The notes below the pieces were generated by a model that was not told the DNA's origin, searched no databases, and saw only the letters and a program-made list of their open reading frames with translations. The translations under genes and the position numbers were made by a program. From a virus (lineage: Duplodnaviria; Heunggongvirae; Uroviricota; Caudoviricetes), in IMG/VR virus record IMGVR_UViG_2529292837_000006: a stretch of 13,047 nucleotides of DNA, one strand, 5' to 3'. Shown one piece after another: positions 1 to 13,047 of the stretch (the first letter of the stretch is position 1; every line of letters starts with the position of its first letter).

Positions 1-86
1 CCCCGGATGTGGCGGACATGACGGAGGATGACGTAATGCTGATGACAGTATCAGAAGGGATCGCAGGAGGAGTCCGGTATGGCTGA
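1..86 (+). CDS. T: 3' end of tail assembly protein T (G-T frameshift product C-terminus), partial
   Basis: Frame-3 ORF open from the window edge to TGA at 84-86, translation ...TEDDVMLMTVSEGIAGGVRYG; it overlaps the H start by 8 nt, the same arrangement as lambda T/H. Too short to judge independently. Confidence 0.5.
   Translation, partial: PDVADMTEDDVMLMTVSEGIAGGVRYG
65..70 (+). promoter_or_regulatory. Shine-Dalgarno (AGGAGG) for H
   Basis: aggagg 8 nt upstream of the ATG at 79. Confidence 0.6.
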
Positions 87-2658
87 ACCGGTAGGCGATC
101 TGGTCGTTGATTTAAGTCTGGATGCGGCCAGATTTGACGAGCAGATGGCCAGAGTCAGGCGTCATTTTTCCGGTACGGAAACTGATGCGAAAAAAACAGC
201 GGCAGTCGTTGAACAGTCGCTGAGCCGACAGGCGCTGGCTGCACAGAAAGCGGGGATTTCCGTCGGGCAGTATAAAGCCGCCATGCGTATGCTGCCTGCA
301 CAGTTCACCGACGTGGCCACGCAGCTTGCAGGCGGGCAAAGCCCGTGGCTGATCCTGCTGCAACAGGGGGGGCAGGTTAAGGACTCCTTCGGCGGGATGA
401 TCCCCATGTTCAGGGGGCTTGCCGGTGCGATCACCCTGCCGATGGTGGGGGCCACCTCGCTGGCGGTGGCGACCGGTGCGCTGGCGTATGCCTGGTATCA
501 GGGCAACTCAACCCTGTCCGATTTCAACAAAACGCTGGTCCTTTCCGGCAATCAGGCGGGACTGACGGCAGATCGTATGCTGGTCCTGTCCAGAGCCGGG
601 CAGGCGGCAGGGCTGACGTTTAACCAGACCAGCGAGTCACTGACGGCGCTGGTGAATGCCGGTGTGCGTGGTGGTGAGCAGTTTGAGGCGATCAGCCAGA
701 GTGTGGCGCGTTTCTCCTCTGCATCCGGCGTGGAGGTGGACAAGGTCGCTGAAGCCTTCGGGAAGCTGACCACAGACCCGACGTCGGGGCTGACGGCGAT
801 GGCGCGTCAGTTCCATAACGTGACGGCGGAGCAGATTGCGTATGTTGCTCAGTTGCAGCGTTCCGGAGATGAAGCCGGGGCATTGCAGGCGGCGAACGAG
901 GCCGCAACGAAAGGGTTTGATGACCAGACCCGCCGCCTGAAAGAGAACATGGGCACGCTGGAGACCTGGGCAGACAGGACAGCACGGGCATTCAAATCCA
1001 TGTGGGATTCGGTGCTGGATATTGGTCGCCCGGACACTGCCCAGGGAATGCTGGAGAAAGCAGAAAAGGCTTTTGATGAGGCGGACAAAAAATGGCAGTG
1101 GTATCAGAGCCGGAGCCACCGGCGCGGTAAAACCTCAGCATTTCTTGCCAATCTCCGGGGAGCATGGGAGGACAGAGCGAATGCGCAACTTGGGCTTTCA
1201 GCCGCCACGTTGCAGGCCGATCTTGAAAAGGCCAGAGAGATGGCAGCAAAGGACTGGGCCGAGTCTGAGGCATCACGGCTGAAATATACCGAAGAGGCGC
1301 AGAAGGCTTACGAACGGCTGCAGACGCCGCTGGAGAAATATACCGCCCGTCAGGAAGAACTGAACAAGGCACTGAAAGACGGGAAAATCCTGCAGGCGGA
1401 TTACAACACGCTGATGGCGGCGGCGAAAAAGGATTATGAAGCGACGCTGAAAAAGCCGAAACAGTCCGGCGTGAAGGTGTCTGCGGGCGATCGTCAGGAA
1501 GACAGTGCTCATGCTGCCCTGCTGACGCTTCAGGCAGAACTCCGGACGCTGGAGAAGCATGCCGGAGCGAATGAGAAAATCAGCCAGCAGCGCCGGGATT
1601 TGTGGAAGGCGGAGAGTCAGTTCGCGGTACTGGAGGAGGCGGCGCAACGTCGCCAGCTGTCTGCACAGGAGAAATCCCTGCTGGCGCATAAAGATGAGAC
1701 GCTGGAGTACAAACGCCAGCTGGCTGCACTTGGCGACAAGGTTACGTATCAGGAGCGCCTGAACGCGCTGGCGCAGCAGGCGGATAAATTCGCACAGCAG
1801 CAACGGGCAAAACGGGCCGCCATTGATGCGAAAAGCCGGGGGCTGACTGACCGGCAGGCAGAACGGGAAGCCACGGAACAGCGCCTGAAGGAACAGTATG
1901 GCGATAATCCGCTGGCGCTGAATAACGTCATGTCAGAGCAGAAAAAGACCTGGGCGGCTGAAGACCAGCTTCGCGGGAGCTGGATGGCAGGCCTGAAGTC
2001 CGGCTGGAGTGAGTGGGAAGAGAGCGCCACGGACAGTATGTCGCAGGTTAAAAGTGCAGCCACGCAGACCTTTGATGGTATTGCACAGAATATGGCGGCG
2101 ATGCTGACCGGCAGTGAGCAGAACTGGCGCAGCTTCACCCGTTCCGTGCTGTCCATGATGACAGAAATTCTGCTTAAGCAGGCAATGGTGGGGATTGTCG
2201 GGAGTATCGGCAGCGCCATTGGCGGTGCTGCCAGTGGTGGAGCATCCGCGTCAGGCGGTACAGCCATTCAGGCCGCTGCGGCGAAATTCCATTTTGCGAC
2301 CGGGGGATTTACGGGAACCGGCGGCAAATATGAGCCAGCGGGGATTGTTCACCGTGGTGAATTTGTCTTCACGAAGGAGGCAACCAGCCGGATTGGTGTC
2401 GGCAACCTGTACCGCCTGATGCGGGGCTATGCGGAAGGTGGTTATGTGGGCGGTGCCGGAAGTCCGGCGCAGATGCGGCGGGCTGAAGGCATTAATTTTA
2501 ATCAGAACAATCACGTGGTGATTCAGAACGACGGTACGAATGGTCTGCCAGGTCCACAGATGATGAAGGCAGTGTATGACATGGCCCGCAAGGGTGCCCG
2601 TGATGAAATTCAGACACAGATGCGTGATGGTGGCCTGTTCTCCGGAGGTGGACGATGA
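79..2658 (+). CDS. H: Tail tape measure protein (lambda gpH-like), 859 aa
   Basis: Uninterrupted 859-codon ORF with ATG at 79 and an upstream AGGAGG. Long predicted helical, charged central region and a Gly-rich C-terminus (GSIGSAIGGAASGGASASGG); N-terminus MAEPVGDLVVDLSLDAARFDEQ matches lambda H as I recall it. Stop overlaps the M start (ATGA). Confidence 0.93.
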   Translation: MAEPVGDLVVDLSLDAARFDEQMARVRRHFSGTETDAKKTAAVVEQSLSRQALAAQKAGISVGQYKAAMRMLPAQFTDVATQLAGGQSPWLILLQQGGQVKDSFGGMIPMFRGLAGAITLPMVGATSLAVATGALAYAWYQGNSTLSDFNKTLVLSGNQAGLTADRMLVLSRAGQAAGLTFNQTSESLTALVNAGVRGGEQFEAISQSVARFSSASGVEVDKVAEAFGKLTTDPTSGLTAMARQFHNVTAEQIAYVAQLQRSGDEAGALQAANEAATKGFDDQTRRLKENMGTLETWADRTARAFKSMWDSVLDIGRPDTAQGMLEKAEKAFDEADKKWQWYQSRSHRRGKTSAFLANLRGAWEDRANAQLGLSAATLQADLEKAREMAAKDWAESEASRLKYTEEAQKAYERLQTPLEKYTARQEELNKALKDGKILQADYNTLMAAAKKDYEATLKKPKQSGVKVSAGDRQEDSAHAALLTLQAELRTLEKHAGANEKISQQRRDLWKAESQFAVLEEAAQRRQLSAQEKSLLAHKDETLEYKRQLAALGDKVTYQERLNALAQQADKFAQQQRAKRAAIDAKSRGLTDRQAEREATEQRLKEQYGDNPLALNNVMSEQKKTWAAEDQLRGSWMAGLKSGWSEWEESATDSMSQVKSAATQTFDGIAQNMAAMLTGSEQNWRSFTRSVLSMMTEILLKQAMVGIVGSIGSAIGGAASGGASASGGTAIQAAAAKFHFATGGFTGTGGKYEPAGIVHRGEFVFTKEATSRIGVGNLYRLMRGYAEGGYVGGAGSPAQMRRAEGINFNQNNHVVIQNDGTNGLPGPQMMKAVYDMARKGARDEIQTQMRDGGLFSGGGR

Positions 2659-2984
2659 AAACCTTCCGCTGGAAAGTGAAACCCGGTATGGATGTGGCTT
2701 CGGCCCCTTCTGTAAGAAAGGTGCGCTTTGGTGATGGCTATTCCCAGCGAGCGCCTGCCGGGCTGAATGCCAACCTGAAAACGTACAGCGTGACGCTTTC
2801 TGTCCCCCGTGAGGAGGCCACGGTACTGGAGTCGTTTCTGGAAGAGCACGGGGGCTGGAAAGCCTTTCTGTGGACGCCGCCTTATGAGTGGCGGCAGATA
2901 AAGGTGACCTGCGCAAAATGGTCGTCGCGGGTCAGTATGCTGCGTGTTGAGTTCAGCGCAGAGTTTGAACAGGTGGTGAACTGA
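2655..2984 (+). CDS. M: Minor tail protein M (lambda gpM-like), 109 aa
   Basis: 109-codon ORF, MKTFRWKVKPGMDVASAPSVRKVRFGDGYSQRAP..., same length as lambda M; start overlaps the H stop and its stop overlaps the L start (TGATG). Confidence 0.93.
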   Translation: MKTFRWKVKPGMDVASAPSVRKVRFGDGYSQRAPAGLNANLKTYSVTLSVPREEATVLESFLEEHGGWKAFLWTPPYEWRQIKVTCAKWSSRVSMLRVEFSAEFEQVVN

Positions 2985-3681
2985 TGCAGGATATCCGGCA
3001 GGAAACACTGAATGAATGCACCCGTGCGGAGCAGTCGGCCAGCGTGGTGCTCTGGGAAATCGACCTGACAGAGGTCGGTGGAGAACGTTATTTTTTCTGT
3101 AATGAGCTGAACGAAAAAGGTGAGCCGGTCACCTGGCAGGGGCGACAGTATCAGCCGTATCCCATTCAGGGGAGTGGTTTTGAACTGAATGGCAAAGGCA
3201 CCAGTACGCGCCCCACGCTGACGGTTTCTAACCTGTACGGTATGGTCACCGGGATGGCGGAAGATTGCAGAGTCTGGTCGGCGGAACGGTGGTCCGGCGT
3301 AAGGTTTACGCCCGTTTTCTGGATGCGGTGAACTTCGTTAACGGAAACAGTGACGCCGATCCGGAGCAGGAGGTGATCAGCCGCTGGCGCATCGAGCAGT
3401 GCAGCGAACTGAGCGCGGTGAGTGCCTCCTTTGTACTGTCCACGCCGACGGAAACAGATGGCGCTGTTTTTCCGGGACGTATCATGCTGGCCAACACCTG
3501 CACCTGGACCTATCGCGGCGATGAGTGCGGTTATCACGGTCCGGCGGTCGCGGATGAATATGACCAGACAACGTCCGATATCACGAAGGATAAATGCAGC
3601 AAATGCCTGAGTGGCTGTAAGTTCCGCAATAACGTCGGCAACTTTGGCGGCTTCCTTTCCATTAACAAACTTTCGCAGTAA
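2984..3681 (+). pseudogene. L: Minor tail protein L (lambda gpL-like), interrupted by a frameshift near 3263-3268
   Basis: Two overlapping ORFs, 2984..3331 (frame 2) and 3265..3681 (frame 1), together span 698 nt, one short of the 699 nt expected for a 232-aa L plus stop. Frame 2 reads ...NLYGMVTGMAED, then the continuation QSLVGGTVVRRKVYARFLDAVNFVNG... through the Cys-rich C-terminus (CSKCLSGCKF) is in frame 1. Consistent with a 1-bp deletion at gaagat|tgcag. Confidence 0.8.
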
Positions 3682-3686
3682 ATCCC

Positions 3687-4430
3687 ATGACACAGACAGA
3701 ATCAGCGATTCTGGCGCACGCCCGGCGATGTGCGCCAGCGGAGTCGTGCGGCTTCGTGGTAAGCACGCCGGAGGGGGAAAGATATTTTCCCTGCGTGAAT
3801 ATCTCCGGTGAGCCGGAGGAGTATTTCCGGATGTCGCCGGAGGACTGGCTGCGGGCAGAGATGCAGGGTGAGATTGTGGCGCTGGTCCACAGCCACCCCG
3901 GTGGTCTGCCCTGGCTGAGTGAGACCGACCGGCGGCTGCAGGTGCAGAGTGATTTGCCGTGGTGGCTGGTTTGCCGGGGGGCGATTCACAAGTTCCGCTG
4001 TGTGCCACATCTTTCCGGGCGGCGCTTTGAGCACGGGGTGACGGACTGTTACACGCTGTTCCGGGATGCTTACCATCTGGCGGGGATTGAGATGCCGGAT
4101 TTTCATCGCGAGGATGACTGGTGGCGTAACGGTCAGAATCTCTATCTGGATAATCTGGAGGCCACAGGGCTGTATCAGGTGCCGTTGTCAGCGGCGCAGC
4201 CGGGCGATGTGCTGCTGTGCTGTTTTGGTTCATCGGTGCCGAATCATGCCGCCATTTACTGTGGTGATGGCGAGCTGCTGCACCATATTCCTGAACAACT
4301 GAGCAAACGAGAGAGGTATACCGACAAATGGCAGCGACGCACACACTCCCTCTGGCGTCACCGGGCATGGCGCGCATCTGCCTTTACGGGGATTTGCAAC
4401 GATTTGGCCGCCGCATCGACCTTCGTGTGA
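3687..4430 (+). CDS. K: Tail tip assembly protein K (lambda gpK-like); MPN/JAB plus NlpC/P60 two-domain protein
   Basis: 247-codon ORF starting 6 nt after the L stop. JAMM-type motif HSHPGGLPWLSETD (HxHx7Sx2D) encoded about 3889-3930; NlpC/P60-like Cys in VTDCYTLFRDAYH (about 4040-4060). An alternative internal start is the ATG at 3831, preceded by GGAGGA and giving about 199 aa, but the longer ORF contains the N-terminal part of the MPN fold (ESCGFVV). Confidence 0.85.
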   Translation: MTQTESAILAHARRCAPAESCGFVVSTPEGERYFPCVNISGEPEEYFRMSPEDWLRAEMQGEIVALVHSHPGGLPWLSETDRRLQVQSDLPWWLVCRGAIHKFRCVPHLSGRRFEHGVTDCYTLFRDAYHLAGIEMPDFHREDDWWRNGQNLYLDNLEATGLYQVPLSAAQPGDVLLCCFGSSVPNHAAIYCGDGELLHHIPEQLSKRERYTDKWQRRTHSLWRHRAWRASAFTGICNDLAAASTFV

Positions 4431-4999
4431 AAACGGGGGCTGAAGCCATCCGCGCACTGGCCACACAGCTCCCGGCGTTTCGTCAGAAACTGAGCGACGG
4501 CTGGTATCAGGTACGGATTGCCGGGCGGGACGTCAGCACGTCCGGGTTAACGGCGCAGTTACATGAGACTCTGCCTGATGGCGCTGTGATTCATATTGTT
4601 CCCAGAGTCGCCGGGGCCAAGTCAGGTGGCGTATTCCAGATTGTCCTGGGGGCTGCCGCCATTGCCGGATCATTCTTTACCGCCGGAGCCACCCTTGCAG
4701 CATGGGGGGCAGCCATTGGGGCCGGTGGTATGACCGGCATCCTGTTTTCTCTCGGTGCCAGTATGGTGCTCGGTGGTGTGGCGCAGATGCTGGCACCGAA
4801 AGCCAGAACTCCCCGTACACAGACAACGGATAACGGCAAACAGAACACCTATTTCTCCTCCCTGGATAACATGGTTGCCCAGGGTAATGTTCTGCCGGTT
4901 CTGTACGGTGAAATGCGCGTGGGGTCACGCGTGGTTTCTCAGGAGATCAGCACGGCAGACGAAGGGGATGGTGGTCAGGTTGTGGTGATTGGTCGCTGA
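4328..4999 (+). CDS. I: Tail tip assembly protein I (lambda gpI-like), 223 aa
   Basis: 223-codon ORF with ATG at 4328, MAATHTLPLASPGMARICLYGDLQRFGRRIDLRV...; Gly/Ala-rich hydrophobic C-terminal half (GAAAIAGSFFTAGATLAAWGAAIGAGG). Overlaps the 3' end of K by 103 nt in a different frame, as in lambda. Confidence 0.9.
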   Translation: MAATHTLPLASPGMARICLYGDLQRFGRRIDLRVKTGAEAIRALATQLPAFRQKLSDGWYQVRIAGRDVSTSGLTAQLHETLPDGAVIHIVPRVAGAKSGGVFQIVLGAAAIAGSFFTAGATLAAWGAAIGAGGMTGILFSLGASMVLGGVAQMLAPKARTPRTQTTDNGKQNTYFSSLDNMVAQGNVLPVLYGEMRVGSRVVSQEISTADEGDGGQVVVIGR

Positions 5000-5017
5000 T
5001 GCAAAATGTTTTATGTG

Positions 5018-5038
5018 AAACCGCCTCCGGGCGGTTTT
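5018..5038 (+). terminator. Hairpin plus T-run between I and J (weak intrinsic terminator or attenuator-like)
   Basis: aaaccgcc-tccg-ggcggtttt: GC-rich stem ccgcc/ggcgg extended by A:T pairs, followed by ttttgtcgttt; lies in the 60-nt I-J spacer. Confidence 0.35.
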
Positions 5039-5059
5039 GTCGTTTATGGAGCATGACGA

Positions 5060-8462
<3,403 letters not shown>

Positions 8463-8480
8463 ATTTTATAACCCAGAACG

Positions 8481-8504
8481 GGCGTCAGAAATGACGCCTT
8501 TTTT
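8481..8504 (+). terminator. Rho-independent terminator-like hairpin between J and lom
   Basis: ggcgtca-gaaa-tgacgcc followed by tttttt; 7-bp perfect stem, 4-nt loop, 6 T. Confidence 0.6.
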
Positions 8505-8528
8505 ATTGCAGAAAAGCGAGAGGTAATT

Positions 8529-9128
8529 ATGCGTAAACTTTATGCCGCCATTTTGTCCGCAGCCATTTGTCTGGCCGTATCCGGTGCGCCTGCATGGGCG
8601 TCTGAACATCAGTCCACGCTGAGCGCGGGGTATCTTCATGCCCGGACGAACGTTCCCGGCAGTGATGATCTGAACGGGATTAACGTGAAATACCGTTATG
8701 AGTTTACGGACACACTGGGGCTGATTACGTCATTCAGTTATGCCAACGCTGAAGATGAGCAAAAAACGCATTACAGCGATACCCGCTGGCATGAAGATTC
8801 CGTGCGTAACCGCTGGTTCAGCGTAATGGCGGGGCCGTCTGTGCGCGTGAATGAATGGTTCAGCGCGTATGCGATGGCGGGTGTGGCTTACAGCCGTGTG
8901 TCGACTTTCTCCGGGGATTATATCCGCGTAACTGACAATAAGGGGAAAACGCACGATGTGCTGACCGGAAGTGATGACGGTCGCCACAGCAACACGTCTC
9001 TGGTGTGGGGGGCTGGCGTGCAGTTTAACCCGACCGAATCCGTGGCCATTGATGTCGCTTATGAAGGCTCCGGCAGTGGTGACTGGCGCACTGACGGGTT
9101 CATCGTGGGTGTTGGTTATAAATTCTGA
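8529..9128 (+). CDS. lom: Lom outer-membrane protein (Ail/Lom/PagC-family beta-barrel), 199 aa
   Basis: ATG at 8529 with GAGAGG upstream; signal peptide [24 protein letters not shown] with probable cleavage after AWA; aromatic-rich alternating beta-strand pattern and C-terminal ...[10 protein letters not shown] typical of an outer-membrane beta-barrel; sits between J and stf as in lambda. Confidence 0.9.
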
Positions 9129-9155
9129 TTAGCCAGGTAACACAGTGTTATGACA

Positions 9156-9181
9156 GCCCGCCGGTTCAGGCGGGCTTTTTT
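9156..9181 (+). terminator. Rho-independent terminator after lom
   Basis: gcccgcc-ggttca-ggcgggc followed by tttttt; 7-bp GC-rich stem, immediately 3' of the lom stop. Confidence 0.7.
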
Positions 9182-9192
9182 GTGGGGTGAAT

Positions 9193-12100
9193 ATGGCAGT
9201 AAAGATTTCAGGTGTACTGAAAGACGGCACAGGAAAACCGGTACAGAACTGCACAATCCAGCTGAAAGCAAAACGTAACAGTACCACGGTGGTGGTGAAC
9301 ACGCTGGCCTCAGAAAATCCGGATGAAGCCGGGCGTTACAGCATGGACGTTGAGTACGGTCAGTACAGCGTTATTCTGTTGGTGGAGGGATTCCCGCCGT
9401 CACATGCCGGGACCATCACCGTGTATGAAGATTCCCGACCCGGTACGCTGAATGATTTTCTCGGTGCCATGACGGAGGATGATGCCCGTCCTGAGGCACT
9501 GCGCCGTTTTGAACTGATGGTGGAAGAGGTGGCGCGTAACGCGTCCGCGGTGGCACAGAACACGGCAGCCGCGAAGAAGTCAGCCAGCGATGCCGGCACA
9601 TCAGCCCGTGAGGCGGCAACCCATGCGACTGATGCTGCAGGCTCAGCACGCGCAGCCAGCACGTCAGCCGGACAGGCCGCGTCGTCGGCTCAGTCAGCAT
9701 CTTCCAGCGCAGGAACGGCATCAACAAAGGCCAGTGAAGCATCGAAAAGTGCTGCTGCTGCAGAGTCCTCAAAAAGCGCGGCAGCTACCAGTGCCGCTGC
9801 GGCGAAAACGTCAGAAACGAATGCGGCAGCGTCACAACAATCAGCAGCCACTTCTGCATCCGCCGCGACCACGAAGGCGTCAGAAGCAGCCACCTCAGCC
9901 CGGGATGCGGCGGCCTCAAAAGAGGCAGCGAAATCATCAGAAACGAACGCATCATCAAGCGCCAGTAGTGCCGCTTCCTCGGCAACGGCGGCAGGCAATT
10001 CCGCGAAGGCGGCAAAGACGTCTGAGACAAACGCCAGGTCTTCTGAAACGGCAGCGGGACAGAGCGCCTCAGCTGCGGCAGGCTCAAAAACAGCGGCTGC
10101 GTCGTCTGCCAGTGCCGCGTCAACAAGTGCCGGGCAGGCCTCAGCCAGTGCCACCGCCGCCGGAAAATCGGCAGAAAGTGCCGCATCGTCTGCTTCAACA
10201 GCCACAACGAAGGCTGGCGAAGCCACTGAACAGGCCAGCGCAGCAGCGAGGTCTGCTTCCGCAGCGAAGACATCCGAAACGAACGCGAAAGCGTCGGAAA
10301 CCAGCGCAGAATCCTCAAAAACGGCTGCCGCATCGTCCGCCAGTTCGGCGGCGCCATCGGCCTCATCGGCGTCTGCTTCAAAAGATGAGGCGACCAGACA
10401 GGCATCAGCAGCGAAAGGCAGCGCCACGACGGCATCCACGAAAGCAACAGAGGCGGCAGGCAGTGCGACGGCAGCATCTCAGAGCAAAACTACTGCTGAA
10501 TCCGCTGCGACCCGTGCGGAAGCTGCTGCTGATCGTGCTGAAGAGATTGCCGGTGCAGTTGCGATGGAAGACGCAAGCCTTACAACTAAAGGTGTTGTGA
10601 AACTTAGCAGTGCTGTTGATAGCACCAGTGAATCGCTGGCCGCAACGCCAAAAGCAGTTAAAGCAGCCAATGACAATGCGAATAGCAGGGTGCCATCTAA
10701 CCGAAAAGTTAACGGAAAAGCACTGACTGCGGATATAACATTAACGCCGAAAGATATTGGTACTTTAAATTCAGTAACGATGTCTTTCTCTGGCGGGGCT
10801 GGGTGGTTCAAACTGGCTACGGTTACCATGCCACAAGCGAGTTCCATCGTTTACATCGCATTGATTGGTGGCGCTGGTTACAACGTCGGTTCCCCACATC
10901 AGGCAGGCATTTCAGAACTGGTTCTACGAGCAGGCAATGGAAACCCCAAAGGAATTACCGGGGCTTTGTGGAAGCGTACAGCCGTCGGATTAACGAATTT
11001 CGCCTGGATCAACACATCCGGCGATACATATGATATTTACGTTGAGATTGGCAATTATGCGACGAGTGTAAATATCCATTGGGATTGTACTGCAAATGCG
11101 TCAGTTTCTGTTTATACCTCGCCAACATATTCAGCGAGTAAGCCTTCCAGCGTTACCTATGGTGTTGTTTATACGATGTATAGCTCACATCAGAAACCTA
11201 CACCATCAGATATTGGAGCACTGCCAACAACCGGAGGAACAGTTTCAGGTCCGTTGTCTGTTACAGGTGGATTAACTGGTTCATTGAATGGTAATGCAAG
11301 TACAGCCACGAAATTGCAGACGGCAAGATCTATCGGTGGAGTTGTTTTCGACGGTTCTGCAAATATTAACCTTCCAGGTGTAAACACTACGGGTAATCAG
11401 AACACCACTGGTAATGCTGCAACTGCTACAAAACTTCAGACTGCAAGAAAAATATCCGGTGTTCCATTTGATGGTTCTACTGATATCACTTTAACCGCCG
11501 CGCATGTGGCTGCTTTTGCCAGAAGGGCAACGGATACATATGCCGATGCGGATGGTGGCGTTCCCTGGAATGCCGAATCAGGCGCTTACAATGTCACCCG
11601 CTCTGGCGACACCTATATTCTGGTTAACTTCTATACCGGAGTCGGAAGTTGCCGGACCTTGCAGATGAAGGCACATTACAGAAATGGAGGTCTGTTCTAC
11701 CGTTCCTCAAGAGATGGCTATGGTTTTGAGGAAGACTGGGCAGAAGTTTATACCTCGAAAAATCTTCCACCAGAAAGCTACCCAGTCGGCGCACCAATCC
11801 CGTGGCCATCAGATACCGTTCCGTCTGGTTATGCCCTGATGCAGGGGCAGACTTTTGACAAATCTGCATACCCGAAACTTGCAGCCGCTTATCCGTCAGG
11901 CGTGATCCCTGATATGCGTGGCTGGACGATTAAGGGCAAGCCCGCCAGTGGTCGGGCCGTATTGTCTCAGGAACAGGACGGCATTAAATCACACACCCAC
12001 AGCGCCAGCGTATCCAGTACGGATTTGGGGACGAAAACCACATCGTCGTTTGATTACGGCACTAAATCCACGAATAACACTGGTGCGCATACCCATAGTG

Positions 12101-12420
12101 TTAGCGGTACGGCTGCTTCAGCCGGTGCACATACCCATTCGATGACATTTGTTTCAGGTGGTTCCAGTGGTGCTCCGGGAAGTGGATCACCTGATTATTC
12201 TAAATACAGTGTTAACACTTCTTCTGCAGGCGCTCATACGCACTCTGTATCGGGTACTGCTGCAAGCGCAGGCGCACATGCACATACTGTCGGTATTGGT
12301 GCTCATACGCACTCCGTTGCGATTGGTTCACATGGACACACCATCACCGTTAACGCTGCTGGTAACGCGGAAAACACCGTCAAAAACATCGCATTTAACT
12401 ATATTGTGAGGCTTGCATAA
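9193..12420 (+). CDS. stf: Side tail fibre protein Stf, full length and mosaic (about 1075 aa from the ATG)
   Basis: Uninterrupted ORF; the ORF track starts at GTG 9187 but the ATG at 9193 gives [26 protein letters not shown], the lambda Stf N-terminus. Contains an Ala/Ser/Thr-rich low-complexity region with repeated K[TS]SETNA motifs, two tandem fibre repeats ([28 protein letters not shown] and [28 protein letters not shown]), and a C-terminus with GAHTHS/GAHAHT/GSHGHT HxH motifs ending ...[22 protein letters not shown]. Stop overlaps the tfa start (TAATG). Confidence 0.9.
9545..10560 (+). repeat. Low-complexity Ala/Ser/Thr-rich repetitive coding region inside stf
   Basis: About 330 codons dominated by A/S/T with recurring KTSETNA-type motifs (about 9805, 9931, 10015, 10266); the repetitive GC-rich DNA leaves long ORFs open in several frames on both strands. 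Confidence 0.7.
11290..11496 (+). repeat. Two tandem phage tail-fibre repeat units inside stf
   Basis: Two 28-aa units sharing G-N-A[25 protein letters not shown], about 120 nt apart. Confidence 0.6.
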
Positions 12421-13004
12421 TGGCATTCAGAATGAGTGAACAACCACGGACCATAAAAATTTATAATCTGCTGTCCGGAACTAATGAATTTATTGGTGAA
12501 GGTGATGCATATATTCCGCCTCATACAGGTCTGCCAGCAAACAGTACCGATATTGCACCGCCAGATATTCCGGCTGGTTTCGTGGCTGTTTTCAACAGTG
12601 ATGAGGCATCGTGGCATCTCGTTGAAGACCATCGGGGTAAAACGGTTTATGACGTAGCGTCAGGGGACGAGTTATTTATTTCTGAACTCGGTCCGTTACC
12701 GGAAAATGTTACCTGGTTATCGCCGGAAGGGGAGTTTCAGAAGTGGAACGGCACAGCCTGGGTGAAAGATGCAGAAGCAGAAAAACTGTTCCGGATCCGG
12801 GAGGCGGAAGAAACAAAAAACAGCCTGATGCAGGTAGCCAGTGAGCATATTGCGCCACTTCAGGATGCTGTAGATCTGGAAATCGCAACGGAGGAAGAAA
12901 CCTCATTGCTGGAAGCCTGGAAAAAGTATCGGGTGTTGCTGAACCGTGTTGATACATCAACTGCACCTGATATTGAGTGGCCTACGAACCCTGTCAGGGA
13001 GTAA
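12420..13004 (+). CDS. tfa: Tail fibre assembly protein Tfa, 194 aa
   Basis: 194-codon ORF with ATG at 12420 overlapping the stf stop; [54 protein letters not shown]..., same length and near-identical N-terminus to lambda Tfa as I recall it. Confidence 0.93.
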
Positions 13005-13047
13005 TCATTGGGATTATGCCGCAGCACGTCTTAAGCAAGAACGTGCT

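Follow-up and report, generated by a model that had tools for sequence, protein, structure and literature searches.

A one-base gap in the lambda-type tail tip gene L of an E. coli prophage contig is probably a consensus error in a collapsed repeat

In the stretch of DNA analysed here (13,047 nt, hereafter the window), the lambda-type tail gene L cannot be read from start to stop in one frame. The first-pass annotation described this as a single one-base frameshift in a gene required for tail-tip assembly, and the question is whether the break represents a mutation carried by a prophage, a site of recoding or an error in the deposited sequence. The tail-tip module of the window has the gene order H-M-L-K-I-J, the same as in lambda and nine relatives, and the genes and the separate parts of L are located as follows.

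79..2658, + strand: tape measure gene H, ORF intact (ORF map)
2655..2984, + strand: gene M, intact (PF05939)
2984..3265, + strand: 5' part of L, codons 1-94, frame 2 (translation; PF05100 profile positions 1-67)
3265..3266, + strand: junction with one absent base, the first base of codon 95 (alignment to relatives)
3266..3331, + strand: frame-2 read-through, 21 unrelated codons and a stop (translation)
3266..3681, + strand: 3' part of L, last two bases of codon 95 and codons 96-232, frame 1 (translation; PF05100 75-206)
3687..4430, + strand: gene K, intact (PF14464, PF00877)
to 4999: gene I (ORF map)
5060..8462, + strand: gene J, split over several frames (ORF map, alignment)
8529-9128: lom (ORF map)
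9187-12420: stf (ORF map)
12420-13004: tfa (ORF map)

The ORF of L starts with an ATG at 2984 in frame 2 and encodes 94 gpL residues (MQDIRQ...GMAED), after which, because a base is missing from L, translation continues through 21 unrelated codons (CRVWSAERWSGVRFTPVFWMR) to a stop at 3329-3331. Frame 1, read from 3266, gives (x)QSLVGGTVVRRKVYARFLDAVNFVNG...CSKCLSGCKF...SQ and a stop, ending at 3681, and this 3' part of L holds the C-terminal cysteine-rich part. As deposited, L reads as two ORFs of 115 aa and 130-138 aa and spans 698 nt (2984-3681), and 699 nt are spanned in 30 of the 30 phage matches and 40 of the 40 E. coli matches listed. Alignment to intact L genes placed a one-base gap between 3265 and 3266, where the window has GAAGAT-TGCAG and its relatives have GAAGATCTGCAG (closest relatives) or GAAGATATGCAG (lambda). 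Insertion of any single base at this position resulted in a 232-codon ORF, and insertion of a C resulted in 100% nucleotide identity with L of TW10828 and of both prophages (A and B) of E2980; the 5' part (2984..3265) is 100% identical to the same three genes as it stands. The deposited gene has no full-length match to PF05100 (Phage_tail_L) in one frame, the match being split between the ORF at 2984-3331 (profile positions 1-67) and the ORF at 3289-3681 (75-206); the base-restored protein matches over 1-206 of 206 positions (E = 7e-100).

At this level the first-pass annotation had read L correctly, as a lambda-type L gene that is one base short. Translations and alignment bear out the switch from frame 2 to frame 1 that it saw near gaagat/tgcag, the profile match and the translation to 3681 identify the downstream frame-1 sequence as the continuation of L, and the read-through that it took to be unrelated indeed consists of 21 foreign codons and a stop at 3331. 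The length deficit (698 versus 699 nt) holds against all listed phage and E. coli matches, and the one-base insertion that was proposed to restore a 232-aa L did so, with a profile match from end to end. Intact homologues sharing the junction had been named as evidence to the contrary, and none of the listed homologues has it.

An exact look-up of the 115-aa product showed that the window is contig AQGH01000026.1 in full, from draft assembly GCA_000356085.2. Besides AQGH01000026, only two contigs of sister drafts (AQDN01000069 and AQDG01000087) have the truncated L product on record; the intact 232-aa L protein is found on about 1000 contigs. The named sources of the 115-aa product are E. coli 2735000 and E. 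coli 2866750, both of which are among the CS7-expressing ETEC strains (PMC6301781). Searching the literature by draft accessions (AQGH, AQDN, AQDG and GCA numbers) returned nothing relevant, and searching by strain names led to the CS7 assignment only. The three drafts, which are probably Illumina assemblies made in a large ETEC project with many isolates, all contain one-base gaps: 8 in the window (one in L, seven in J), 12 in AQDN and 29 in AQDG. We also observed that L is in three pieces in both AQDN01000069 and AQDG01000087, that K is truncated in AQDG01000087 (gap near window 4229) and that stf is split in AQDN01000069 (gap near window 9492).

The description of the frameshift as a single one holds within L and fails for its neighbourhood, as at least seven further one-base gaps are located in J, near 5967, 5976 (two), 5982, 5987, 6749 and 6812, and more are found near 8195, 8279 and 8390. 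The coding sequence of J is distributed over at least four frames, and a TGA at 8197-8199 was made by one of the gaps. Five of the J gaps lie within about 21 nt (5967-5987) and are common to all three drafts; five one-base deletions in so short a stretch are not a natural mutation pattern. All J gaps are located on or beside differences between the J alleles of co-resident prophages, and they have the same cause as the gap in L, with far more damage. In the window stf and tfa (9187-13004) are intact ORFs of normal length. Inside stf an antisense ORF (window 9690-10439, - strand, 249 aa) is present, which the source annotation lists as a gene and which has no match in Pfam; the antisense orf206b of lambda occupies a comparable position, and the ORF of the window is probably not a gene.

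A complete genome of the CS7 lineage, E2980 (record L3_CS7_E2980), contains a pair of lambdoid prophages, A and B, which encode identical H, M, L, K and I proteins and whose DNA is base-identical over window 1501-5000. Both have a C at the position that is missing from the window, and so have both prophages of TW10828. Since copies A and B agree at the site, two copies alone leave the L gap unexplained, and a collapse of the two TW10828 prophages alone was rejected as its cause for the same reason. A third allele was predicted by filling the positions missing from the drafts (those of AQDG) with lambda-type bases, and this sequence was then used for searching. Among the top matches were ETEC-2264 (Dhaka) and O114:H49 90-9280, with 99.5% identity at a third locus.

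This third prophage (C, in ETEC-2264) has an intact 699-nt L with an A at the missing-base site, and ETEC-2264 also has an L of the window type, identical to that of the window apart from the gap. The alignment column at the gap is C, C and A in copies A, B and C, respectively, and codon 95 is CTG (Leu95) in prophages A and B and ATG (Met95) in prophage C; it is Met in lambda too. The nearest other differences between the three copies are at 3175 and 3339. L is intact in the complete genomes of E2980 (two copies), TW10828 and ETEC-2264. At least two near-identical copies of the region are thus present in complete genomes of the CS7 lineage, the copies being those of relatives and not of the window's strain.

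An IS66-family element (tnpA, tnpB, tnpC) is located between I and J in E2980 prophage B, ETEC-2264 and 90-9280. The BLAST pieces that flank this element in E2980 prophage B overlap by nine bases (window 5041-5049), which suggests a target-site duplication of the IS66-family element. The window has no IS66 insertion at 5041-5049; it may follow the path of another copy there, or the element may have been skipped by the assembler.

Comparison with the three prophages showed that the contig is put together from different copies. Window 1-1500 is identical to prophage C (1500/1500 identities), versus 114 mismatches and 68 gap columns against prophage A, and window 1501-5000 matches A and B at every base (3500/3500 identities), with the L gap as the sole difference. 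Private substitutions amount to one in 8 kb of the window, with none around the L gap. The source switches at 1500/1501, inside gene H, from prophage C (ETEC-2264) to A/B (E2980), so that the 859-aa H ORF is probably chimeric and present in no real prophage. Gene J is made up of blocks from the A, B and C alleles. Its C-terminal receptor-binding part together with the J-lom spacer (window 7900-8560) has at most about 92% identity to any of 5426 complete E. coli genomes and consists of alternating blocks of roughly 100-200 nt that largely follow one prophage allele or another. The last 141 nt of the window (12907-13047), located just after tfa, share 99.3% identity with a segment of the second TW10828 prophage (15517-15657), and segments of this kind recur in that prophage beside fragments of tail-fibre assembly genes. 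The contig therefore ends in a repeat, as expected for a repeat-bounded contig. The stretches of full identity, first to C and then to A/B, are the mosaic of copies by which a collapsed-repeat artefact can be recognized.

The second mark of such an artefact is the coincidence of errors with differences between copies, and this was evaluated in two ways. In the first, nine intact references were used (lambda, phi458, PhiR30_1, 2H10 and five complete E. coli genomes). Of the gaps, 6 of 8 in the window, 9 of 12 in AQDN and 19 of 29 in AQDG lie on polymorphic columns, on a background of about 10% (Fisher p = 3e-5, 3e-7 and 2e-12, respectively). Within L, eight of the nine distinct gap columns coincide with the 15 lambda-type SNP columns (of 699; p = 4e-14), at which L of the lambda type and L of the window type have different bases. 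The L gap of the window is among these eight, and its column is the sole one at which lambda alone of the nine references differs (A). In the second evaluation, A, B and C were placed in one alignment and the 510 differing columns of 7961 served as background, with the following outcome for the private gaps.

Window: 8 private gaps, 5 exactly on a differing column, 8 on or within one column
AQDN: 12 private gaps, 10 exactly on a differing column, 12 on or within one column
AQDG: 29 private gaps, 20 exactly on a differing column, 28 on or within one column

Taken together, 48 of the 49 private one-base gaps in the three drafts lie on or beside a difference between A, B and C (Fisher p = 5e-5 for the window, 3e-11 for AQDN and 5e-18 for AQDG; 3e-20 for the union of 34 distinct gap columns), which is the coincidence that a collapsed repeat should give. 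The dropped SNPs are relatively isolated: the median number of further differences within 50 nt is 5 for them and 18 for the retained SNPs (p = 2e-6). Not every difference is lost: only about 1 of the 129 A/B-versus-C differences in window 1501-5000 was dropped, and the isolated SNPs at 3108 and 3175 were kept. Private insertions relative to the intact references were found in none of the three drafts, which contain deletions only. The deleted bases are all in runs of length 1 or 2 and none is in a run of three or more.

We consider it highly probable (roughly 90%), on the basis of sequence comparison, that the L frameshift is a consensus-calling error in a collapsed repeat and not a mutation. 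The presence of the copies in relatives, their C/A difference, the chimeric make-up of the contig and the coincidence of the gaps with copy differences can be read directly from the genomes compared. The course of events would then be that a strain of the CS7 ETEC lineage carries three lambdoid prophages whose tail modules (H-M-L-K-I-J) are nearly identical, that a short-read assembler merged reads from copies A, B and C into one 13-kb contig, and that the consensus step left out the base at some of the isolated SNPs by which the merged copies differ. At 3265/3266 the conflict would have been between the C of A and B and the A of C, leaving no base in the deposited consensus. That the window's strain carries these three copies is inferred, as is the software step at which the base was lost. 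The raw reads would be predicted to contain GAAGATCTGCAG and GAAGATATGCAG in a ratio of about 2:1, and none would have the deletion (GAAGATTGCAG). Most likely, L is intact in every copy of the real genome and encodes a 232-aa lambda-type tail tip protein L. The biology implied by the first-pass annotation, a disabled L and a lost tail-tip assembly gene, is unsupported, as the gap falls on a C/A difference between prophage copies in a chimeric contig.

A genuine 1-bp deletion, with one co-resident prophage of a CS7 ETEC sub-clade carrying L as a frameshifted pseudogene, is improbable, although it is the most probable alternative to a consensus error. Defective lambdoid prophages are common in E. 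coli, prophage C of ETEC-2264 is already a remnant with IS elements on its flanks, and the same L site is dropped in all three separate drafts of related strains, a pattern that also fits an inherited mutation. The three drafts, however, also share the five J gaps within about 21 nt, which cannot be natural. The L gap coincides with a lambda-type SNP column, of which there are only 15 among the 699 columns, and chance alone would place it there in about 2% of cases. Moreover, L is intact in A and B in complete genomes of the lineage and in C in ETEC-2264, and no private substitutions surround the gap. A 70-nt query across the junction found no match of at least 99% at any of the 7834 places in 4106 complete E. 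coli records, a search in which identity bands alone could miss a copy with the deletion and a nearby SNP and in which all listed spans are one base longer than the query. The exact junction was likewise not found in viral contigs, GTDB species representatives and JGI metagenomes. A genuine pseudogene should recur in independent high-quality assemblies of the lineage, and the exact junction occurs in none of the 4106 records. If the deletion were real, an intact L of a sibling prophage could supply the protein in trans, which would be a small case of inter-prophage complementation.

Still less probable is a generic sequencing error unrelated to repeats, caused by low coverage or by a platform-type indel such as homopolymer miscounting. 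The many one-base gaps in the sister drafts and the fact that all errors are deletions are in line with this explanation, but the gap positions are far from random (on SNPs between copies, with p down to 3e-20), and stf and tfa, the distal part of which has no counterpart in the copy in the second TW10828 prophage, are intact. Homopolymer miscounting was ruled out in particular, as every deleted base lies in a run of 1 or 2. Programmed +1 ribosomal frameshifting, or other recoding that would yield full-length L, can practically be dismissed even though this gene module has an established case of recoding (the -1 frameshift of lambda G/GT), as the junction is not conserved (the listed homologues are 699 nt and in frame, and the 4106 complete E. 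coli records lack it), no slippery motif is visible at GAT TGC AGA, and J contains at least seven such gaps.

With a consensus error as the preferred reading, the L frameshift has little biological importance, and its practical value is that of a warning about these drafts, in which bases lost at SNPs between collapsed prophage copies have led to frameshifts and the contigs combine sequence from several prophages. Pseudogene calls, prophage-integrity scores and the typing of J or tail-fibre alleles from these drafts would be misleading; the sister drafts probably overstate pseudogene counts in prophage regions, and J allele typing from the window contig would be spurious in view of the mosaic at 7900-8560. 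The test used here, whether private indels coincide with sites that differ between paralogous copies, can be reused.

In comparison with known systems, the base-restored L is a typical representative of the lambda gpL family (PF05100; 8IYK, 8IYL, 8K35, 8XCG, 9E7M): it is the same gene in the same slot between M and K. The restored 232-aa protein is colinear with lambda tail tip protein L (8iyk_L, residues 1-232 on 1-232, E = 5.5e-156) and differs from it in five residues (42, 95, 124, 185 and 196), with no cysteine among them. Unlike the lambda gene, the deposited L of the window is without the first base of codon 95.

The frameshift itself can be set beside two known kinds of defects. Genuine frameshifted tail genes of cryptic lambdoid prophages in E. 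coli resemble it in having a one-base frameshift in an essential tail gene, but real prophage decay consists of substitutions, insertions and larger deletions unrelated to copy SNPs, whereas the window has deletions only, all of them on or beside such SNPs, with one private substitution in 8 kb. Consensus errors in collapsed or chimeric repeats of multi-prophage short-read drafts resemble it in the mosaic structure, in the errors at SNPs between copies and in the contig end in a repeat; such errors usually result in a wrong or ambiguous base, and in the window a base is dropped instead, which gives rise to frameshifts. Very probably the L frameshift belongs with these assembly errors, not with pseudogenes or recoding, and does not represent a real biological feature.
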